Positions 6,618 to 60,533 of a DNA stretch of 64,000 nucleotides are shown piece by piece; the first letter of the stretch is position 1; each line of letters starts with the position of its first letter. The position numbers and the translations under genes were made by a program. The stretch is taken from NCBI GenBank assembly GCA_951406725.2, contig OX597817.1, positions 89,652,001-89,716,000 on the forward strand, read 5' to 3'. The DNA comes from Octopus vulgaris (Eukaryota). A model generated the notes under the pieces. The model did no database searches. It was not told the DNA's origin and saw only the letters and a list, made by a program, of their open reading frames with translations.

Positions 6618-7410
6618 AGGGCGGCGAGTTGGCAGAAACATTAGCACGCCGGGCGATATGCGTAACCGTATTTCGTCTGCCGTTACGTTCTGAGTTCAAA
6701 TTCCGCCGAGGTCGACTTTGCCTTTCATCCTTTCGGGGTCGATTAAATAAGTACCAGTTACGCACTGGAGTCGATATAATCGACTTAATTCGTTTGTCTG
6801 TCCTTGTTTGTCCTCTCTGTGTTTCGCCCCTTGTGGGTAATAAAGAAATAGGTATTTCGTCTACCGATAAACGTTCTAAGTTCAAATTCTGCCGAGGTCG
6901 ACTTTGCCTTTCATCCTTTTGGGGTCGATTAAATTACCAGTTACGCACTGGGGTCGATGTTATCGACTTAATCCGTTTGTCTCCTTGTTCGTTCCCTCTG
7001 TGTTTAGCCCCTTGTGGGTAGTAAAGAAATAGGTATTTTGTCTGTCTTTACGTTCTGAGTTCAAATTCGCCGAGGTCGTCTTTGCCTTTCATCCTTTCGT
7101 GGTCGATAAATTAAGTACCAGTTACGCATTGGGGTCGATGTAATCGACTTAATCCCTTTGTCTGTCCTTGTTTTTCCCCTCTATGTTAAGCCCCTTGTGG
7201 GCAATAAAGAAATAAAAAACGTTAGCACACTGAGTGAAATGCTTAGCAGTATTTCGTCTGTCTTTATATTCTGAGTTCAAATTCCGAGGTCGTCTTTGCT
7301 TTTCATCCTTTTGGGGTCGACAAATTAAATACCAGTTGCGTACTAGAGTCTATCTAATCGACTGCCCCCTTCCCCCAAAATTTAGGGCCTTGTGCCTAGA
7401 GTAGAAAAGA
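6618..7410 (+). mobile_element. Composite Meta-domain-like SINE with four tandem ~180-bp internal units
   Basis: One head (ggcggcgagttggcagaa), then four repeats of gttcaaatt...gaggtcg...tttgcctttcatcc; ends with tail ccttgtgcctagagtagaaaag. Confidence 0.85.
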
Positions 7411-12891: not shown

Positions 12892-13059
12892 TGTATGTAT
12901 GTATGTATGTATGTATGTGTGTGTGTATATATATGTATATATGGGTACATGACGTTACAAAACGTAAACAACATGAAATACGAAAACCTGGAATAAAGAA
13001 TCTTTTTTGCGAACAGCGTAAGAAACAAATGGAAAAACAAGACAAGTAACATAAAGAAT

Positions 13060-13178
13060 GACCCTTCATCAGTTGTTAGCTGTTTATCTACTCCACATTT
13101 CGAGCAATTACAAGATATGCCTTCGAGGAAGCGGTTGCTCCCGCAACCCAAAATAAAATTTGGGATTTGCGGAGGGTC
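13060..13178 (-). ncRNA. Permuted hammerhead-like ribozyme motif (stem I shortened by a 3-nt deletion)
   Basis: GACCCU-hairpin-GAGCAA...AUAU C UUG UAA UUGCUC GAA AUGU...UAACAA CUGAUGA AGGGUC. Confidence 0.6.
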
Positions 13179-13735
13179 AAAGTTGGTAACAAAAACAGGA
13201 CAGTGAAAGCAAAACAGTGAGCGCTGCTAATCTATGACAAGGTGAGGTGGCTTCCCTCTCTCTCTCTATCTCTCTCTCCTCTCTCTCTCTCTCTCTTTCT
13301 CTCCCTCTCTCTCTCTCTCTCTTCCTCTCCCTCTTTCTCTCTCTCTCTCTCTCTTTCATCCCCTTTCGTTTCCTCTCTCTTCTTTCCTCTAATTCTCTTT
13401 ATCTCCCCTTTTCCTTCTTTCGTTTATTTCTCTCTCATCCTGTCTCCAATTTTTTCTCCCCTTCACCGCTTTCTATGTGTCTCTCTCTCTTTCTCACTCT
13501 TTCTCCTTTACTCCCTCGTTGCTCACACGTGAGCACTAGCCATCTTTCTTTTCTTAACTTGAGCTTCTTTCTTTCCTTCTGGTCTGTCGTACAGATCAGA
13601 CGCATTCTTTTCTGTCTCCTCTATTTTCTTTCCTCCTGTCAAAGCTTGTTCCTCCAGCATTCGCCACCTCACCTTGTCATAGATTAGCAGCGCTCACTGT
13701 TTTGCTTTCACTGTCCTGTTTTTGTTACCAACTTT

Positions 13736-13857
13736 GACCCTCCGCAAATCCCAAATTTTATTTTGGGTTGCGGGAGCAACCGCTTCTTCGAAGGCACATC
13801 TTGTCGTAATTGCTCGAAATGTAGAGTAGATAAACAGCCGATAACTGATGAAGGATC
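13736..13857 (+). ncRNA. Permuted, pseudoknotted hammerhead-like ribozyme motif, core intact
   Basis: Stem III ACAU/AUGU, cleavage triplet AUC (C13800), stem I UUGUCG/CGAUAA, CUGAUGA 13845-13851, GAA 13816-13818, stem II GAGCAA/UUGCUC, closing helix GACCCU/AGGAUC. Confidence 0.7.
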
Positions 13858-14041: not shown

Positions 14042-14253
14042 TAACGGGAAAGTTTACGAAAATAAACAAAAAACGAAGGCAGGTGGAGTACAAACAAACA
14101 AGTGTATTAGTATAGCGCTCAGGAATAGAAATAGAAAAAGTCGTTTACGTTTCGAGCCTACGCTCTTCGACAGAAAGATACACAGAAAAAAACAAGGAGA
14201 GAAACAAGGAGAGAAAAAAATGCGTGTAGAAGCTAACGATCTATCATGGCGTC
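14041..14253 (-). mobile_element. Penelope-like element terminal fragment with minimal hammerhead
   Basis: Closely matches 49443-49655 and 59168-59380; flanked by TA runs; hammerhead-like motif at 14141-14178. Confidence 0.8.
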
Positions 14254-34278: not shown

Positions 34279-36163
34279 CTTCTTTTTTCTTCTTTCAAAT
34301 TTGCTTCCATTTCTTGCCGAGTGTCTTCCCGACTCCTAGGGCAAAGAAACTCATAGTATACATTGGTAGGCCATTAAACTAAACTCAGTAGTTCGTTCAT
34401 TTTTTTTTTTTTTTTAAAGTTCAATTAAAATACATGAGCAGCAACAGTTCTCACATCGACAATGCTCTTCTCAATACGTGTGATGTACCAGTTAAGACAA
34501 TCTTTTGCACTTCTTGCAGGGATGGTAAGCCAGGGATCATTCTCATATAATTTTCGGTTCCCTTCTTGATCATTCCTAGTGCTCCTACGATCACTGGTAT
34601 TGTAACCGCCTTGAGATGCCACATTTTCTCAATTTCAATGAGTAGGTCTTTATATTTTCTGAGCTTGTCAAACTCTTTCGCTGAGATATTATGATCACAT
34701 GGGATGCTCATGTCGATCAATAAGCAAACTTTATTGTTTTGGTCTTTCACAACAATATCTGGTTTATTGGCCTTGATGGTTCGGTCTGTATGTACTGGAA
34801 AGTCCCACAAAATGGTTACATTTTCTCCTTCAGTTACAGCCTCAGGGTGGTGATTATACCACTTGTCGGCAGTTTTGATATTGTAATGCCGACTTATTAG
34901 CCAGTGGAGATATTGGCCAACTCTGTCATGTCTTAATTTATACTCCACTGGTGCTAAGACTTTACATCCAGAGATTAGGTGGTCCACTGTTTCAATCATG
35001 TCGTTGCAGAATTGGCATTTTGGGTCTGCTCCATTTTTCATCACATTGGCCTGGTAGTTCCGGGTTAATAGGCTTTGATCTTGAGCAGCCAGGATGAAAC
35101 CTTCACTCTCTGCTTTTATCCCTGATTTCCGTAGCCACTGATGGGTTTGCTTCTGGTCAACATCAGCTTGTTTGCTGCGGGTCACATATTTGCCGTGCAG
35201 AGGTTTCTCCTCCCACCTATCAGCCAATTGCTCGTGCGCTTTTTTCATTGCCATCATTTTCACCTTCTTTGCAACAATAGTTGCCGTACTTCCCTCGGGT
35301 TGTTCAGTTTGGGTATCCTGCACGAGATCAATAGCAAATTTTTTGCTTTCCTTGATGATAGAATGGAGCTTCTTTCGTCTCTCGTGATTTTCCACGAGCT
35401 TTAGCATCCAGTCATTCGATATTTCGAGATATTTGGCCAGTCCAATTGTGGTTGTTTTGTAAGCTAGTTCAAATTGGATCAGGCCTCGACCTCCTTGGGC
35501 TCTGGGAAGGTAAAGGCGATCTACGTCTGCCTTTGGGTGGTGCATCCTATTACAACTCAGCAGCTTGCGTATTTTCCTATCTATATTCTTTACTTCACTC
35601 ATATTCCAGTTCAACACATTGTAGCTATAAGTAACAACTGGAACTGCTAAGGAATTTATAGTTAACACCTTGTTACGTGCATTTAGTTCAGATTTCAGGA
35701 CTGCACGAACTCTCCTATAACATTCCTTCCTGATTTTCTCTTTCATGCTTGCATGCTGAATTACAGAGCCTTCATTTATCCCTAAATATTTGTATGTTTG
35801 TTCTTGTTCAAGCTCTCTTATGACTGTGTCAACATCTAACACGACTGAATTTGTGGTCTTCACTTTCCCTTTCTGGAAAGTGGCCTTGGCACACTTCTCA
35901 AGTCCAAACTCCATCCCGATGTCATCGCTGAATGCTTTCACGGTGCGCAATAGGCCTTCAAGTTCATTATTGTCTTTACCATAAAGTTTTAAGTCATCCA
36001 TATAAAATAGATGGCTTATTTTTTTATTGGCAATTTTATACCCATACCCTGTTCTGTTTAATTCACTTGTAAGGGGTATTAGGGCTATGCAGAATATTAA
36101 AGGTGAAAGTGAGTCACCTTGAAAAATTCCACAGTTGATGTTTATATTTTCTGAGGCAAGTAC
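34279..36163 (-). mobile_element. 5'-truncated R4/Dong-clade non-LTR retrotransposon inserted in a (TAA)n microsatellite
   Basis: (TTA)n tracts on both sides (about 34195-34278 and 36164-36196); ~170-bp 3' UTR after the ORF stop. Confidence 0.92.
34451..36163 (-). CDS. RT C-terminal half + CCHC zinc knuckle + restriction-like endonuclease (partial, uninterrupted frame)
   Basis: GIFQGDSLSPLIFC and HLFYMDDLKLY (in frame upstream of the listed ATG), YKYLGI, CQFC..ETVDHLISGC, RHD, NKPDIVV..LLIDMSIP, K..KY. No stop over about 570 codons. Confidence 0.93.
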   Translation of the reverse strand, partial: VLASENININCGIFQGDSLSPLIFCIALIPLTSELNRTGYGYKIANKKISHLFYMDDLKLYGKDNNELEGLLRTVKAFSDDIGMEFGLEKCAKATFQKGKVKTTNSVVLDVDTVIRELEQEQTYKYLGINEGSVIQHASMKEKIRKECYRRVRAVLKSELNARNKVLTINSLAVPVVTYSYNVLNWNMSEVKNIDRKIRKLLSCNRMHHPKADVDRLYLPRAQGGRGLIQFELAYKTTTIGLAKYLEISNDWMLKLVENHERRKKLHSIIKESKKFAIDLVQDTQTEQPEGSTATIVAKKVKMMAMKKAHEQLADRWEEKPLHGKYVTRSKQADVDQKQTHQWLRKSGIKAESEGFILAAQDQSLLTRNYQANVMKNGADPKCQFCNDMIETVDHLISGCKVLAPVEYKLRHDRVGQYLHWLISRHYNIKTADKWYNHHPEAVTEGENVTILWDFPVHTDRTIKANKPDIVVKDQNNKVCLLIDMSIPCDHNISAKEFDKLRKYKDLLIEIEKMWHLKAVTIPVIVGALGMIKKGTENYMRMIPGLPSLQEVQKIVLTGTSHVLRRALSM

Positions 36164-37240: not shown

Positions 37241-37345
37241 CAAAATGGGACAAGAACGCAAAACATTCAAATAGACGACACAAAAAAAGCGGACGGGTCA
37301 TTCGAAGCCTCTAATCTTCAGTCAAGAACCGCATCATCCTCGCAA
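37240..37345 (-). mobile_element. Terminal fragment of the permuted-hammerhead family
   Basis: Matches 56630-56748 and keeps UCUUGA-CUGAAGA-uuagAGGCuuCGAAUG; flanked by TA-rich repeats. Confidence 0.75.
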
Positions 37346-49446: not shown

Positions 49447-49543
49447 CGGGAAGCTTTATGAAAATAAACAAAAGACGAAGGCAGGTGGAAAACAAACGAA
49501 CAATTGTATTAGTATGGCGCTCAGGAAATATAAATAAAACAAG

Positions 49544-49581
49544 TCTTTAACGTTTCGAGCCTACGCTCTTCAACAGAAAGA
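49544..49581 (-). ncRNA. Minimal type-I hammerhead with variant core CUGUUGA
   Basis: UCUUU CUGUUGA A GAGC guag GCUC GAA ACG UU AAAGA. Confidence 0.65.
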
Positions 49582-50403
49582 TACAGAGAGAGAAAAACAC
49601 AGAAAGAAGGAGAGAAAAAAAATGCGTGCAGTAGCTAACGAATCAACATGGCGATCTGATTTCGGCCAGAGGTCAAAGATCAAACATGAGACGCGAGAGC
49701 GAAATAAGGGGAGATAATAGGGTTGATAAAAGGGTTGAGGGACCAGCTAAAAGTGCGTGGGAGGGGTCTGGATGTGTGTATGTATAGGGTTGGTGTATGT
49801 ATTAGTATGTATAAGGGTGTGTGTGTGTGTGTGTGTATGAGAGAGTATTAGTGCGTAAGATTGGTCTGGACGTGCGTATGTATGGGGTTGGTGTATGTAT
49901 TATTATGTATTAGTACGTATTGGTATGTATAGGTATGTGTGTGTGTGTGTGAGAGAGTATAAGTGCGTATGCGGGGTCTGGACGTGTGTATGTATAGGGT
50001 TGGTGTAAGTATTAGTATGTACTAGTATGTATTAGTACGTATTAGTATGTATTAGTTGGTGTGTGTATTAGTATGGCACATCATATGTGATGTGATGTGT
50101 AAAGTCATGTGGTGTAGTGAGGAGAAGAGGGGGAGGGGGAGAAGAGGGGGGAAGAGGGGGGAGAAGGGGGAAGAAGAGGGGGAGGAGAAGGGGAAGAGGA
50201 GAGGATGGGGGAGAAGGAAGGGGAGGAGGGGGGATGAAGGAGGAAAGAGGGAGAGGGGGAGAGAGGGAGTGAGGGAGCAGAGGGAAGGGGAAGAGGGAGG
50301 GAGAAAGAGGGAAGAAGGGAAGGGGAGTAGGGGTGAAAGGATGAAGGACTGAAGAAGTAGGGGTCGGGGGGAGAAAGGATAGGTGAGGAGGGGAGAGAGG
50401 GGG

Positions 50404-51035
50404 GTTAGATGAGGAGGGGGGAGAGTTGAGACCAAATGGCGTATAAGAGCAAAGAGAGAAGATTAATTCCTGTTCACGGCGCAAACGGGAATCCGGATGG
50501 CCTCTGTGTAAGGACAAACCGAACACAGATAGGTGTTGCAAGGAGTGACCGGTGGAGCGGAAATGGCGTGAGACCGGTGTGTCGTTCGCAAGGTGGATGT
50601 CACGAAGGTGTTCCGCGAACCGGTCAGCCAAGCGGCGTCCCGTTTGTCCGATGTACAAGGAATTGCAGAGAGAGCAAGAGATGCAATAGATAATATTGCT
50701 GGAGGTGCAGGTGAAGGAGTGGATGATGGGATAGGGTCGATGGTGGGTGCTAGTGAGGCGGGTGGTGTTGGAGAGGTAAGGGCAAGTGCGGCAACGTGGG
50801 CGGGAGCAGGGGAACGAGCCGGGTTGGGAGGTAGGGTCAGGGAAGGAGCTATGGACCAAAAGGTCTCGAAGGTTGTGGGCTCGTTTGAAAGAGGGGAAGG
50901 GTCGGTTAGGGAAGAGGTGTGAAGTGGACGGGTCGGACTGGAGATGACGGAAAGCTCGAAGAATGGTGCGTTGGAGACGTAGGGTCGTGGTGTGGTAAGT
51001 GAGGGGAAAAGGGAGGCGGGAGACTACAGGGCGGG

Positions 51036-51036
<1 letters not shown>
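50404..51036 (-). CDS. Penelope-like ORF C-terminus: linker zinc finger + GIY-YIG endonuclease (partial)
   Basis: RLPFPLTYH..LQSDP..FKRAHNLRDLLVHS, CSRPRCRTC, FTCTSSNIIYCISCSLCNSLYIGQTGRRLADRFAEH, VSRHF, RLRREQELI, PFGLN. The Pro/Ser-rich extension in the ORF track is read-through into low-complexity UTR. Confidence 0.9.
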
Positions 51037-51070
<34 letters not shown>

Positions 51071-51421
51071 CAATATTTTGGACTAATGGGTATATATCAA
51101 TTAGTATGTTGATGCGTTGAGTAAAGCACTGGCACGGTTTAGACTACCTGGTGACATCCGCAGTTTGAGTATATTTCCCTTGGATCTACTTCAGAAATTC
51201 CGCCAAATCCATCTTCTGGTTAAGTCTTTTGTGGTGCTTTTGCGGCTTTAATAAAAAAGCAAATTACTCTATCTTCGGTATTCGAGTACTGTTTTTTCCC
51301 ACCTTTATGTGCTTACTTGCGTATATATATGTATGTGTGTGTGTGTGTGTGTGCGTGTTTGTACATACATACATATATATATACATACATACATACATAC
51401 ATACATACATACATACATACA

Positions 51422-54190: not shown

Positions 54191-54561
54191 ATTGCAACAG
54201 TGTTACAAGGAGGTAAAAGTTACTCCCATCTATGAGTTAAATACCCGCGTACCGCTTTCTCTTTGATGTTTCGCTGGGTCTAGAGTGCGAGGTGTGTCTA
54301 TGCCAACGTACGAATAAACGAGACTTTAAGGAAGGAAGGAAGGAATAATGCATCAGAACAAGCTGTGGTTTTTGTGACCAAGTCATATTTGATTGCAAGT
54401 GAAAGCCGGCAGCTAGGAAGATATTTAAGTAGCGTTAAATACTGAGCCATAAAAAACCAAGTACGCAATGCGGAAGTGGTGTGTAGATAACAATTATTGT
54501 ATTGCTGAAATTACTGAAAGTAAGCGATACAAAAAAAGGACAGGAATAAACAAGGACGAGT

Positions 54562-54697
54562 CATTCGGGGCTTTCAATCTTCAGTCGAATTCCAGATTTT
54601 CTCAGCAGTTTCGGTCGGTTACACTCGAGACTGCTCCAATCCCCACCCCCAATCTAAGCTAAGAGTACTAGATTCCTTGGAAGAAAGCAAGCGAATG
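54562..54697 (-). ncRNA. Permuted hammerhead-like motif, core intact, upstream stem-II strand damaged
   Basis: GCAGU C UCGAGU guaa CCGACC GAA ACUGC ... AUUCGA CUGAAGA uu GAAAGC cc CGAAUG. Confidence 0.6.
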
Positions 54698-55482
54698 TAT
54701 GCAAAAACAAGGACGAAAAAACCGGAGAAATGGTACGCAAATAAAAATACAAACAACAAGACATTAACAACAGGTGTCTTTCGACTAAGGACGAATTAAA
54801 TTAAGCTAGTGTGTGTGGAAGTAAAGCCTTACGGCAAGGACATAAGAGATGAAAGTCATGGGAAGGAATATAGATGCTGCAAGGATAGCCGAACACCGGT
54901 CACGTGGAAAGAGAGGAGACAGGTAGGCAGAGAGATAGAGAATTAGAGAGGGACGAGAGAGAAAGAAAAAGAAAAGGGACAGAGCGAGATAAAAGAGGAG
55001 GGAAGGTGAGAATGAAGGAAAAGCCAAGGAATGTGAGAGACGGGAAACGAGAAAAAGAAAAGTGGAAAGAACACAGTAAGTGTGAAGAGGCTGAAAGAAA
55101 GAATAAGAGAGTCGTACAGAATTTAGATATATATATATATTACTTTCATCTAAGAGACCAAAAGTGTACGTACTCCGCTATATGTATATTTAAAAAAGAA
55201 AACAAAAATGGAACAAGAACGTGACAGGCGACAACAAAACACGTGACCGGTGTTCCGCCAAGCCTGAACTTTCTTTCTTGGTTCGACTACCATCCGTGCA
55301 GCAGCTATATTCTTTCCCATGACTTGCATCTCTTATGTCCCTGTCGTAAGGCTTCACTTCCACACACGCCAGCTTAATTTAATTCTTCCTTAGTCGAAAG
55401 ACACCTTTTGTTAATGTCCTGTTGTTTGTATTTGTATTTCGGTGCCATTTCTCCGTTTTTTTCCCGTCCTTGTTCTCGTATA

Positions 55483-55617
55483 CATTCACTTGCTTTCTTC
55501 CAAGGAATCTAGTACTCTTAACTTGGATTTTCTTGGGGCCGGCCAGATTGGAGCAGTCTCGAATGTAACCGACCTAAACTACTGAGAAAATCTGGAACTC
55601 GACTGAAGATAGAAAAC
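55483..55617 (+). ncRNA. Permuted hammerhead-like motif with GAA>UAA core mutation
   Basis: GGCCGG CCAGAUU gga GCAGU C UCGAAU guaa CCGACC UAA ACUAC ... AAUCUGG a ACUCGA CUGAAGA. Confidence 0.55.
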
Positions 55618-55730
55618 TCCTTGTTTTTTTTCCTGTCCCTTTTTGTATCGTCTAATTGTCCAGATGTTTTGTTGTCGCCTGTTACGTTTTTGTTCCATTT
55701 TTTTTCTTTTTTATATATACATACATATAA

Positions 55731-56113: not shown

Positions 56114-56577
56114 AGAAGAAGAAAAATGAGGGGAGGAAGAGAAGAAGAAGAAGAAGAAGAAGAAGAAGAAGAAGAAGAAGAAGAAGAAGAAGAAGAAGAA
56201 GAAGAAGAAACGTAGGAGCAAGTGGGGATGGAGGTGGAGGCGGCTACATAAATGTACGATTGCGATACATAGAAAGCGAAAAGAAAAGAAGAAAACAAGT
56301 GGGAATGAGAAAATGAAATAAAAAAACTACAAGAGAGAAAGAAAAAAAAAACCAAAGAAATATAGGAAAGACGGAAGACCAATATGAATGAATCAAATCT
56401 CAGCTCCACCCGTTTTACCACCACCACCACCACCGCCACTACTACTACTACCAACATTAACGACAACAACAACAGCAATAAAGCACCTTAGTCACTCCCT
56501 CCCCTTTATACTTCCCACACATTTTTCATGGTTGGTGAGAAACGTAGTTTTATATGTGTGTGTGTGTATATATATAT

Positions 56578-57312
56578 AAGAGAACAAATTGTACGTACGT
56601 CGCTATATATATATATATATAATAAAATACAAAATGCGACAAGAACACAAAATGGAACAACAAAACATCCAGATAGACGATACAAAAAAACACGGACGGG
56701 TCATTCGAAGCCTTTTATCTTCAGTCAAGAACCGGATCATCCTCGCAATTTCGGCTGATTAATCTTGAGATTGCTCCAATCTGGCCAGCCCCAAGGAAAA
56801 CTAAGCTAAGAGCATTAGATTCCTTGGAAAAAAGCAACGAATGTATACGAAACAAGGACAGAAAAACAGACAATGTTACACGAATATAAATACAAAATAC
56901 AATAAAAAAAAATAATAATAATAACAGAACATAACAACAGGCGTCTTTCGACAGGGAACGAATTGAAATCAGCTGGCGTGTATGGAAATTAAGCCTTACG
57001 GCAGAGGGAAGAATATCGACGTGGCAGTGACCACAGTCAAACGCAAAAGGGTTAGCAGTCACGTGAGAAGAGAAGAGAGAGAAAAAGGGGAACAAAAGAA
57101 TTAAGGAGGGGAGAAGAGAGAGAGAGAGAAAGAGAGTGTGTAGAAGAAGCAGATAGACTGAAGAGTCAAGGAGTGGCGAGAAAAAAAGAGAGACAGGGAC
57201 ATGGTGAAGTGCAAAGTAAGAAAAACAAAGAAATGTGAGAGAGTGGGGAGAAAGATTTGAAAAAGTCGTACAAGATTTAGTGAAATGTGTACTTACATAT
57301 AAGAGAACAAAG
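56578..57312 (-). mobile_element. Non-coding ~720-bp repeat unit with short direct terminal repeat
   Basis: Homologous to 54520-55240; taagagaacaaa at 56577 and 57300; TA-rich flanks. Confidence 0.7.
56702..56843 (-). ncRNA. Permuted, pseudoknotted hammerhead-like ribozyme motif, all helices intact
   Basis: Stem III GCAAU/AUUGC, triplet AUC (56769), stem I UCAAGA/UCUUGA, stem II GGCUGG/UCAGCC, CUGAAGA, GAA, hairpin CCAAGGAA/UUCCUUGG, closing helix CAUUCG-GCUUUU / AAAGGC-CGAAUG. Confidence 0.72.
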
Positions 57313-57840
57313 TATATATGTATATATGTATATATATATAAGAGTATATATTTTTAAATATATAATTATATACTTAAAAATTATATGTTCATTTGTTCAT
57401 TTTTTATATGCTAACATTTTTTATAAGTATAAATAATTTTTGAGTTCTCGAGTCATATTATGTGGTGGTACTATATTTACCCCATATGATTTCTGACATT
57501 AACAACATTGCCGAGATGGGCTAGTAGATGGATTATATACGCGGGAAATGCATGTATATATTGGTATCTGTGCGGGTAAATTTATCGCTATGTATATGTA
57601 TTTTTCGCGTGTATATTTGTCGGTGTATCTCTACTGAGGATTGAAAAATAATCATTATTACGGAGCATGAAATCTTAAGATAAATCTTTGCATTCGACCT
57701 GGGATTATAAACAAAGAACAAATTTAGAGTGGATTGTAGGTATTTGACATCTACTTCTAGCGTATAAGTGCTGGCCTTCCAGCGCCCTTAATTATAATTA
57801 TATTTTTATAATTATATACTTGAAAAATAATTTTACCTTA

Positions 57841-58689: not shown

Positions 58690-58992
58690 ATCACGTGATC
58701 ACGTGACCGACCAGACCATCAGATGTTGTTACACATCGCTGGTCACAATGCGTTTGCATTGTTTTAGCCTTCGAATGACACCACCCCGCTGGCTAAGCGA
58801 GCAAGCCAACAGAAGAAAGAGTGAGAGAAAGAGTGGTGAAGGAGTACAGCAGGGATCACCTGCCTCCTGCCGGAGCCTCGTGGAACTTTTAGGTGTTTTC
58901 GCTCAATAAACACACACAACGCCTGGGAATCGAAACCGCGATCCTACGACCGCGAGTCCGCTGCCCTAACCACTGGGCCATAGCGCCTCCGC
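58690..58992 (-). mobile_element. tRNA-derived SINE
   Basis: gcggaggcgctatggcccagtggttagggcagcggactcgcggtcgtaggatcgcggtttcgattccc head. Confidence 0.85.
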
Positions 58993-58995
58993 ACA

Positions 58996-59078
<83 letters not shown>

Positions 59079-59167
59079 GCATATTATACATACATACACA
59101 CATGCATATTTACGTGCAGAGCCACACGTATATTGTATGTTTGATTGTATATATATATATATATATA

Positions 59168-60301
59168 TAATGGGAAGCTTTACGAAAATTAACAAAAGAC
59201 GAAGGCAGGTGGAGTACAAACAAACAAATGTATTAGTATGGCGCTTAGGAATAGAAATAAAACAAATCTTTTACGTTTCGAACATACACTCTTCAACAGA
59301 AAGATACACAGAAAGGAAACACGGAGAGAAACAAGGAGAGAAAAAAAATGCGTGCAGGAGCTAACGAATCAACATGGCGGTCTGATTTCGGCCAAAAGTC
59401 AGAGATCAGACGTTAGACACAAGAGGGATAGTAGGGGAGATAACAGGGTTAAATGACCTCGCCCCAACATAAGGGTGCGTTTGTGTATGAGAGAGTATGT
59501 ATGTGCGTATGAAAGGTCTGGACGTGTGTATGTATGTATGATGTGATGTGTAATGTCGTATGGTGTAGTGTAGTGTCGTATGGTGTAGTGTAGTGTAGTG
59601 TGATGTTGTGGGGAGGTGGGGAAAGCCCATGTGGGGTGTGGGTTCGGCTGGGAGTTGGGGTAGAGTGGGGGTTGTGGGGAGAGTGAAAGGGGGAGAGAAG
59701 AGAGAGGAGAGGAGGAGGGAAGAGAGATGAGGGGAAGGGAGTAGGGAGAAGGGAGGAGGGAGGAGGGAAGAGAGATGAAGGGGAGGGGAAGGGGAAGGGG
59801 AAGGGGAAGGGGAGAGAGGAGATGAGGAGGAGAGGGGAGGAGAGGGGAGAGGGAGTGGGGGAGAAGGAAGGAGAAGGAAGGAGAGGAGAAGAGGAGGGGG
59901 ATGGGAAAGGAGGGGAGAGGGGAAAGGGGAGAGGAGGGGGAGGGGGAGAGAAGGGGAGTGAGGGAGTAGAGAGAAAGAGAGAAGGGGAAGAGGGAAGAAG
60001 AAAGAGGAAAGAAGAGGAGGGAAAAAGAGTAGGGGTGAAAAGATGAAGGACTGATGAGAAGTAGGAGTCGGGGGGAGGTTAGATGATGGGGGGAAGTTAG
60101 ATGAGAAAGGGGAGAGTTGAGACCAAATGGCGTAAAAGAGCGAAGAGAGAAGATTAATCCTTGTTCACGGCGCAAACGGGAATCCGGATGGCCTCTGTGC
60201 AAGGACAATCCGAACACAGACAGGTGTTGCAAGGAGTGACCGGTGGAGCGGAAATGGCGTGAGATCGGTGTGTCGTTGGCAAGGCGGATGTCACGGAGGT
60301 G
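59168..60301 (-). mobile_element. Second 5'-truncated copy of the Neptune-like Penelope element
   Basis: Encodes the GIY-YIG C-terminus QHLSVFGLSLHRGHPDSRLRREQGLIFSLRSFTPFGLN; same terminus and hammerhead (59266-59305); TA runs on both flanks. Confidence 0.9.
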
Positions 60302-60533
60302 ATATATATATATAGGTTTGGTGATGCAAACAAGAAAAATAGAACATTGATAAAATTAAAAAAATATTTTTTTTTTTATATTTTTATGAAAATTTAGGAG
60401 AAGCAATAGAGTAACTCAGGGGCAGAGAGTTTCATGTGTTGGCACTTTTCAGAAGTTTGATAAGTTTCAACACACGAATTTCTCAACCTTTGAGTTACTC
60501 TGTTGCTTCGGTATATATATATATATATATATG

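Follow-up and report, generated by a model that had tools for sequence, protein, structure and literature searches.

Hammerhead ribozymes have been treated as assemblies of three blocks, S, G and C, each assumed to be uninterruptible, and three such blocks therefore allow six layouts (Eckert 2023, PMC10085705). In the parts of that paper available to us, no insertion of more than 1-2 nt stands between CUGAnGA and the adjacent stems in known alignments, the validated type-SGC joins stem I to stem II by about 3 nt and has an additional helix that links these two stems, type-CSG is known from two metagenome sequences, and these RNAs are placed in no known genome except for one bacterial GCS candidate. 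Weinberg 2015 is cited, in the accessible portion of PMC13725137, for hammerheads "with additional helices", and the later no-insertion statement of Eckert argues against an earlier report of such an insertion. Among Penelope-like elements (PLEs), the Naiads were described, in the available sections of Craig 2021 (PMC8557442), as lacking canonical hammerheads, with some carrying "HHR_core" or "HHR_half_core" words that were left unexplained; their insertions target (TA)n, bear a 30-40-bp tail and occur in tandem and inverted arrangements. A July 2026 preprint on retrozymes used type I models alone in the portion at hand (bioRxiv 10.64898/2026.07.22.740005).

The stretch analysed here, referred to as the window, is 64,000 nt of Octopus vulgaris DNA (contig OX597817.1, positions 89,652,001 to 89,716,000). 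At 56843-56702 on its minus strand we found every hammerhead core base in non-circular S-G-C order, arranged in the following segments.

56829..56843, minus strand: P0 5' strand, CAUUCG-UU-GCUUUUU (CAUUCG 56843-56838, GCUUUUU 56835-56829), closing helix of the module
56791..56827, minus strand: hairpin abutting stem II, with an 8-bp base stem, present in the minimum free energy (MFE) fold
56785..56790, minus strand: stem II 5' strand GGCUGG (from position 10.1 on), moved to a place upstream of the cleavage block
56777..56785, minus strand: 5' strand of the linker ("I") helix, with one A-C mismatch in this copy
56775..56776, minus strand: GA, non-bulged strand of the putative k-turn, invariant in alignment A2
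56770..56774, minus strand: stem III 5' strand GCAAU, ending in U16.1, from the core and stem parse
56768..56769, minus strand: C17 (56769) and predicted cleavage site 56769/56768, AUC triplet, by analogy with the hammerhead core
56763..56768, minus strand: stem I strand 1, UCAAGA, 4/6 pairs with two-sided change in the F2-superfamily alignment
56745..56758, minus strand: block G, made of UCAGCC 56758-56753 (stem II 3' strand), GAA 56752-56750 and AUUGC 56749-56745 (stem III 3' strand)
56740..56744, minus strand: putative k-turn, 3-nt bulge (GAG) and GA; in alignment A2 the GA is invariant and the bulge variable
56731..56739, minus strand: 3' strand of the linker ("I") helix, pairing with 56785-56777
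56718..56730, minus strand: stem I strand 2, UCUUGA 56730-56725, and core CUGAAGA 56724-56718
56702..56716, minus strand: P0 3' strand, after a single unpaired U that follows A9

The module thus opens with the P0 5' strand and the hairpin; the stem II 5' strand and a linker lead to block S, made of a stem III strand, C17 and a stem I strand, which a short linker separates from block G. A second linker follows, then the stem I strand with CUGAAGA, and the P0 3' strand closes the module; the core bases CUGANGA, GAA, A15.1-U16.1 and H17 are all present. Because the stem II 5' strand lies upstream and is joined to A9 via the closing helix and the hairpin, block C is split. A preliminary description of this DNA had named these segments, all of which lie on the minus strand where it had put them, and its predicted cut at 56769/56768 is correctly placed by analogy with known hammerheads; two parts it did not contain are a helix formed between the two linkers and a k-turn-like bend beside stem III. 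Folding of the region gave z = -3.0, and pseudoknot-free MFE folds never contained stems I, II and III together, as expected. The AUC triplet at the predicted site is rare in natural hammerheads, according to the portion of PMC1636495 available.

The module sits in a repetitive, non-coding element (family F2) that is accompanied in the window by degenerate or truncated relatives and by an unrelated family with the same arrangement.

56575..57315, minus strand: host element, one ~723-nt non-coding unit, with its 3' end at ~56621, (TA)n and then a ~30-nt tail that repeats the element start
54560..54700, minus strand: F2b copy, degenerate in hairpin and stem II
55481..55620, plus strand: inverted partner of the F2b copy, with mutated core
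37298..37345, minus strand: F2 copy, 5'-truncated, starting inside stem III
13736..13857, plus strand: F1, same architecture in unrelated sequence
13051..13190, minus strand: inverted F1 copy

The element at 13736-13857 shares the element order, as had been claimed, and BLAST returned no similarity between the two elements. The fixed stem lengths and UAA-ending linker of the preliminary description did not survive comparison, as both vary among 18 representatives, with an unbroken stem I run of 4-8 bp and an S-to-G linker of 1-5 nt as parsed. Its larger claim, a conserved permuted hammerhead at retroelement 3' ends, is supported by covariation, by recurrence in unrelated elements and by position.

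Evaluating the abundance of F2 in the octopus genome, we obtained about 3000 candidates at first look, of which the best 30 matches were 96-100% identical, and a 20-mer of F2 occurred at 6666 places with none for the control, indicating at least about 6,700 copies. This 20-mer lies 3' of the cut; the one 5' of the cut had 5205 matches, and subfamilies share the two 20-mers unequally, which confounds the comparison as a gauge of 5' truncation at the cut site. Depth falls 5' of the cut site in four of four sequence runs including the largest, these runs being contigs, which cannot show RNA ends, so that the fall is given no weight as evidence. F2 copies have a common 3' end ~100 nt past the core that runs into (TA)n, often followed by a ~30-nt tail equal to the element start, and they show variable 5' truncation and tandem or inverted pairing, a pattern of insertion that is shared with other PLE clades. 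Tandem F2 copies are spaced 720-726 nt apart at five places on contig C1, and in subfamily F2d (locus L183, C1:70375450-70377900) four ribozyme copies are spaced by 706-709 nt in units that are >99% identical, so that the retrozyme trait of a non-coding tandem repeat with one ribozyme per unit is present. Across this rewired form the unit measures ~710-725 nt and the module 96-143 nt. Sixty arbitrarily placed 10-kb stretches of the genome yielded 3 strong descriptor matches, one of them a new family (F4, with a module of about 96 nt), and reversed controls yielded 0, while BLAST of the same stretches recovered 10 copies, whole or partial, among them the source of the query itself. Extrapolation from a density of ~1 per 60 kb suggests roughly some tens of thousands of copies. 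Two descriptor rows from this random sample (L083 and the second L134) were weak and were dropped as likely chance. In an F4 copy (L170, contig C27, about 1550-2070), three ~124-nt partial tandem repeats precede the copy and each ends right after GAAAC of block G, which suggests template jumps at the ribozyme.

Pairing between the linkers, 56785-56777 with 56739-56731, corresponds to the SGC "I" helix, and G56785 is able to pair either in it or in stem II. Taken alone, the linker helix of the window copy is not significant (97/300 shuffles), nor does the helix stand out from shuffles in the F1 and Naiad copies tested (275/300 and 278/300). It exceeded shuffles in 4/7 genome representatives (at most 6/300 as good) and in all 11 metagenome matches described below (at most 3/300), for which the helix had formed no part of the descriptor's filter. 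Between this helix and stem III the window copy matches the standard k-turn sequence, with tandem GA steps next to a bulge of 3 nt; a k-turn is defined as two helices separated by such a bulge and then tandem G.A/A.G pairs (PMC5061560, in the portion available). The consensus recurs in 17/18 parsed F2 copies (30 loci), 2/2 of F2c (6 loci), 1/1 of F2d, 1/3 of F2b (25 loci) and 7/8 of the Naiad family F3 (12 loci); it is rare in F1 (1/8, 25 loci) and was found in 0/13 parsed F4 copies (15 loci). Three of the 11 metagenome matches are k-turn-like, one of them weakly, and six have a one-sided bulge of 3-10 nt; in L190 the place is taken by a 5x4 loop in which each strand carries GA, and neither a k-turn nor a one-sided bulge occurs in L234. 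A bend beside stem III thus appears to be common, though differently built among families, and at the putative k-turn it could produce a kinked three-dimensional fold or bind a protein of the L7Ae family.

For covariation we aligned 7 copies of the F2 superfamily, including two decayed ones, with MAFFT and without fitting to the structure. In this alignment 92.4% of cells were paired and 11/40 pairs had changed on both sides; 0/500 shuffles reached either figure and slid controls gave 31-52% pairing. All six helices had at least one two-sided change each, stem II in just 1/5 pairs, and the P0 columns were 85.7% paired with two-sided change in 2/7 pairs. Across unrelated families each helix shows several pair types, and two-sided changes in stem II are more numerous there. 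These figures are support and not a probability, because the sequences are related and the structure was taken from the first row.

Stems I, II and III abut the core, with covariation, and the departure from known hammerheads lies at A9, which in the window copy is not joined to stem II within 1-2 inserted nt. Here P0 and the hairpin would instead form a four-way junction at A9/G10.1, with 0-1 unpaired nt as parsed at each of its putative crossovers. The hairpin was parsed in 18/18 representatives, its presence being a parser requirement. A viroid hammerhead reportedly tolerates an extra base at the A9/G10.1 step. Eckert 2023, in the parts available, saw no insertion of more than 1-2 nt there, which counts against tolerance of a whole junction at this step.

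The closest described system is type-SGC (HRIMA-1; PMC10085705, from the portion available), which shares the order S, G, CUGANGA, the short stem I-stem II linker, the full core and a Watson-Crick helix between the distal parts of stems I and II, which the window copy shows only weakly. It differs in that block C is interrupted here, which that paper assumes to be impossible, in that the linker helix is here tied to stem III on both strands, and in the P0/hairpin junction and k-turn consensus added here and the animal source of the DNA; the words "kink" and "k-turn" are absent from the text of its supplement. The split-core form would therefore work like SGC without being filed as SGC, since block C is not intact. 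Type-CSG is another opening of the same ring and, unlike the split-core form, keeps block C whole and has no P0/hairpin, as far as its published account is available. Among animal elements, Penelope-like type I hammerheads (PMC4209133) share the placement of a ribozyme in a PLE terminal repeat and the non-LTR retrozymes of the July 2026 preprint share PLE-dependent non-coding tandem units, and both have, in the portions available, type I topology, which the rewired module does not. The "HHR_core" labels of Craig 2021 (PMC8557442) mark the same elements and the same 3' UTR core words, with no fold given for the cores in the sections available. In the preliminary description the subtype was called possibly undescribed; this fails for the S-G-C wiring, published in the accessible part of PMC10085705, and stands for the split block C, the four-way junction, the k-turn and the occurrence in animal genomes. 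Our literature search returned no description of these four features, nor of hammerheads in Naiads, with Weinberg 2015 and Lunse 2017 as sources that may bear on novelty.

To place the module among Naiads, we inspected by eye the final ~330-420 nt in 53 of the 54 published Naiad consensi (PMC8557442 supplement S5). A complete split-core fold was seen in 6/53 ends (Bfor, Amil, Aacu, Anas, Obim and Ovul), which come from coral, ctenophore and octopus, the three corals and the two octopuses being near-copies and stem I being short in Bfor. The same fold is cut off upstream in 3_Chem and 2_Movir and degenerate in Esco, and 6 nematode Naiads (1/2/3_Nbra, Hcon, Hpol and Asuum) have intact type-CSG hammerheads with covarying stems and linker helix, again by eye. 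The remaining ends had other motifs or none in the part examined. The core of the octopus Naiad (F3) matched the octopus genome 433 times with 0 for the control, and at one genome copy examined an RT fragment lies upstream of the 3' UTR ribozyme; full-length homologues of this fragment have an N-terminal GIY-YIG and a C-terminal RT in 4/4 cases, the GIY-YIG of the genome copy lying beyond its truncation.

Among 80 Naiad-like RT loci in metagenomes, 11 have the split-core fold (11/68 of those with tails of at least 250 nt), all in sense orientation downstream of the ORF, 3' of the RT, with 0 in reversed controls. The other 69/80 loci have no such motif, which rules out that all Naiads carry this fold. 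In a quick RT tree the split-core loci fall in two clades and one single branch, with the octopus-genome row on a long branch; three motif-less members fall in the first clade and one in the second, with short tails of 71, 59, 328 and 198 nt.

Other 3' motifs were seen among these elements. Rfam assigned no ribozyme family to 20 motif-less Naiad-like loci, its only matches there being SECIS in 4/20 (L216, L247, L250 and L254, 3' of the RT; L216 alone passes the gathering score), in agreement with published selenoprotein Naiads. Naiad ends of CGi, Sglo, Olur, Tgra, Pmar, Skow and Pfla (oyster, clam and hemichordate) share a conserved 3' UTR motif that is possibly another structured or self-cleaving RNA, and a different one is common to Mmer, Scon, Mphi, Bpla and Mgal (PMC8557442 supplement S5). 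Turning to the autonomous partner, our genome search found none for F2, F1 or F4. The best Naiad-like RT matches in the octopus genome are short or broken, so that the helper of F2 may be another PLE. On the 3' sides of three RT matches, one ends in an F3 ribozyme and two have no core within 1.4-1.6 kb. The F2 unit (~720 nt, of low complexity) gave no Pfam match in its one long frame and does not have the GIY-YIG and RT ORF of a Naiad, making it at most a non-autonomous passenger of a Penelope-type element, whose tie to Naiads rests solely on the shared ribozyme and insertion pattern. F2d is very uniform although no intact Naiad was found in the genome. As for the motif common to Mmer, Scon, Mphi, Bpla and Mgal, we presume a resemblance to the twister ribozyme.

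We regard the module as a real, conserved and probably catalytic new layout of a known ribozyme class, as judged from its sequence, with hammerhead chemistry at H17 by analogy. The explanation that we find reasonably probable is a hammerhead that belongs with the non-circularly permuted SGC, CSG and GCS forms (the "ring" family) and has its opening at a fourth position, A9/G10.1, acting in cis and processing tandem transcripts, its cleavage being predicted; we infer that SGC, CSG and the split-core form represent one ring cut open at different points. In this fold the far ends of stems I and II would be held together by the linker helix and the short S-to-G linker, the k-turn or one-sided bulge would bend stem III and the linker helix back so that the ring closes within one molecule, and P0 and the hairpin would form a coaxial stack that joins stem II and the core in a four-way junction, the chain crossing from A9 into P0 and leaving the hairpin for G10.1. 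Located about 100 nt from the 3' end of Naiad-type PLEs and of the non-coding ~720-nt passengers, the module would cut tandem transcripts into unit-length RNAs, which may circularise and may serve a Penelope-type RT/endonuclease supplied in trans; the 5'-truncated, tandem and inverted copies at (TA)n would be its products. The same role was put forward by Cervera and de la Pena for other PLE hammerheads (PMC4209133, in the portion available), and cleavage is documented for type-SGC RNAs that share the short linker and the linker helix (PMC10085705, likewise). Product release may need help, because the cleavage products would stay paired by about 30 bp.

A serious, if unlikely, contender keeps the same core and makes it active as a strand-swapped dimer of tandem units, such that only tandem transcripts are cut; each unit would be a rod, and its tip loop, with the cleavage site, stem I strand, stem II strand and GAA, would dock into the internal loop of the adjacent unit in the tandem. 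A rod of stem III and linker helix does appear in the MFE fold of 12/18 representatives, stem III is tied to the linker helix by both strands, which in cis imposes a steric constraint that is strongest in F4 (about 96 nt), and Eckert 2023 raised the same distance problem (PMC10085705, in the part available); tandem units also exist, and dimers were proposed for other PLE hammerheads (PMC4209133, same limitation). On geometric grounds, however, a two-fold symmetric dimer would need no sharp bend, and a k-turn or 3-10-nt bulge recurs in most families, so that cis folding is favoured, and type-SGC relatives cleaved co-transcriptionally from single-copy constructs, in work that, in the parts available, included no dimerisation test (PMC10085705). 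Rather improbable is a hammerhead-derived fold that no longer cuts, or does so only with protein, and that the Penelope RT/endonuclease would use at the 3' end as a signal for recognition or folding. The break at A9/G10.1 adjoins the catalytic G8 and G12, and many Naiads have other 3' motifs instead, as that reading would allow, but all catalytic positions are kept and H17 is never G across unrelated families; since the descriptors required both, non-conforming relatives would be missed. The Naiad consensi read by eye, which no descriptor chose, also keep the full core, and nematode Naiads carry intact type-CSG at the same place.

Two simpler accounts fare worse still. An ordinary type-SGC, with the stem II 5' strand directly after CUGANGA (GGCU in the P0 3' strand) and the upstream match incidental, is very improbable: the GGCU of the window copy, which lies 5 nt beyond A9, can pair with AGCC over 4 bp, but the strand immediately after A9 forms 0 bp, and among the 18 representatives such a rival strand forms 0-1 bp in 13 and never more than 4 when up to 2 nt are inserted, and 4-5 bp in only 6 when up to 8 nt are allowed, whereas the upstream strand pairs with stem II at positions 1-5 in 18/18, a count with some circularity, since pairing was a requirement of the parser. 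Coincidence within repeat-rich DNA would fit the shortness of the motifs and the Rfam results, which included no ribozyme family among the 150 of 239 window matches listed and, with covariance models, no hammerhead family (types I-III) among 67 matches on 17 loci. It is refuted by controls and retains a negligible probability: a core-only descriptor (core and stems I-III, nothing else) matched the window 3 times against 0 in 200 dinucleotide shuffles, in line with the preliminary judgement that chance was unlikely, a strict descriptor had 0 matches in 600 kb of reversed genome, and the arrangement recurs at the same place in unrelated elements.

With the cis-acting ring hammerhead as the working explanation, the split core breaks an explicit design rule for hammerheads, that of three uninterruptible blocks in six layouts (PMC10085705, in the portion available), and would move non-circular permutations from rare environmental RNAs to animal genomes at high copy number. 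It also offers a possible answer to the apparent lack in Naiads of the hammerhead that other Penelope-like elements carry (PMC8557442, in the sections available), and it supplies many natural covarying examples, including of type-CSG, for which the available part of PMC10085705 has two sequences. An end-closed module with both strand ends exiting via one helix could be useful for RNA engineering. More tentatively, and as a broad proposal that we hold to be quite possible while short of probable, hammerheads that are both active and non-circularly permuted may occur in a large part of the Naiad clade (CSG in nematodes, split-core in cephalopods, cnidarians and ctenophores), the split-core form being a seventh natural layout with a four-way junction in its core; the k-turn could link cleavage to a host L7Ae-family protein in some lineages, and tens of thousands of copies in the genome may give rise to ~720-nt RNAs of unit length, possibly as circles.

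The window also contains other retroelement fragments. A 570-aa frame at 34454-36163 (minus strand) matches RVT_1 and zf-RVT and is a LINE-type fragment, and at 50068-51096 (minus strand) lies a Penelope-like element fragment ending in GIY-YIG, with a weak Pfam match; the split-core motif is absent 3' of both the RT ORF (34454-36163) and the GIY-YIG fragment (50071-51096). The 3' end of the GIY-YIG element, at about 49540-49575 (minus strand), carries a motif that resembles a minimal type I hammerhead and has an atypical core, and similar type I-like motifs occur at about 14140-14175 and 59270-59300, both on the minus strand. An inverted similar copy of the 3' region of this element lies near 59180-60270 on the plus strand (58984-59364 and 59399-60355).
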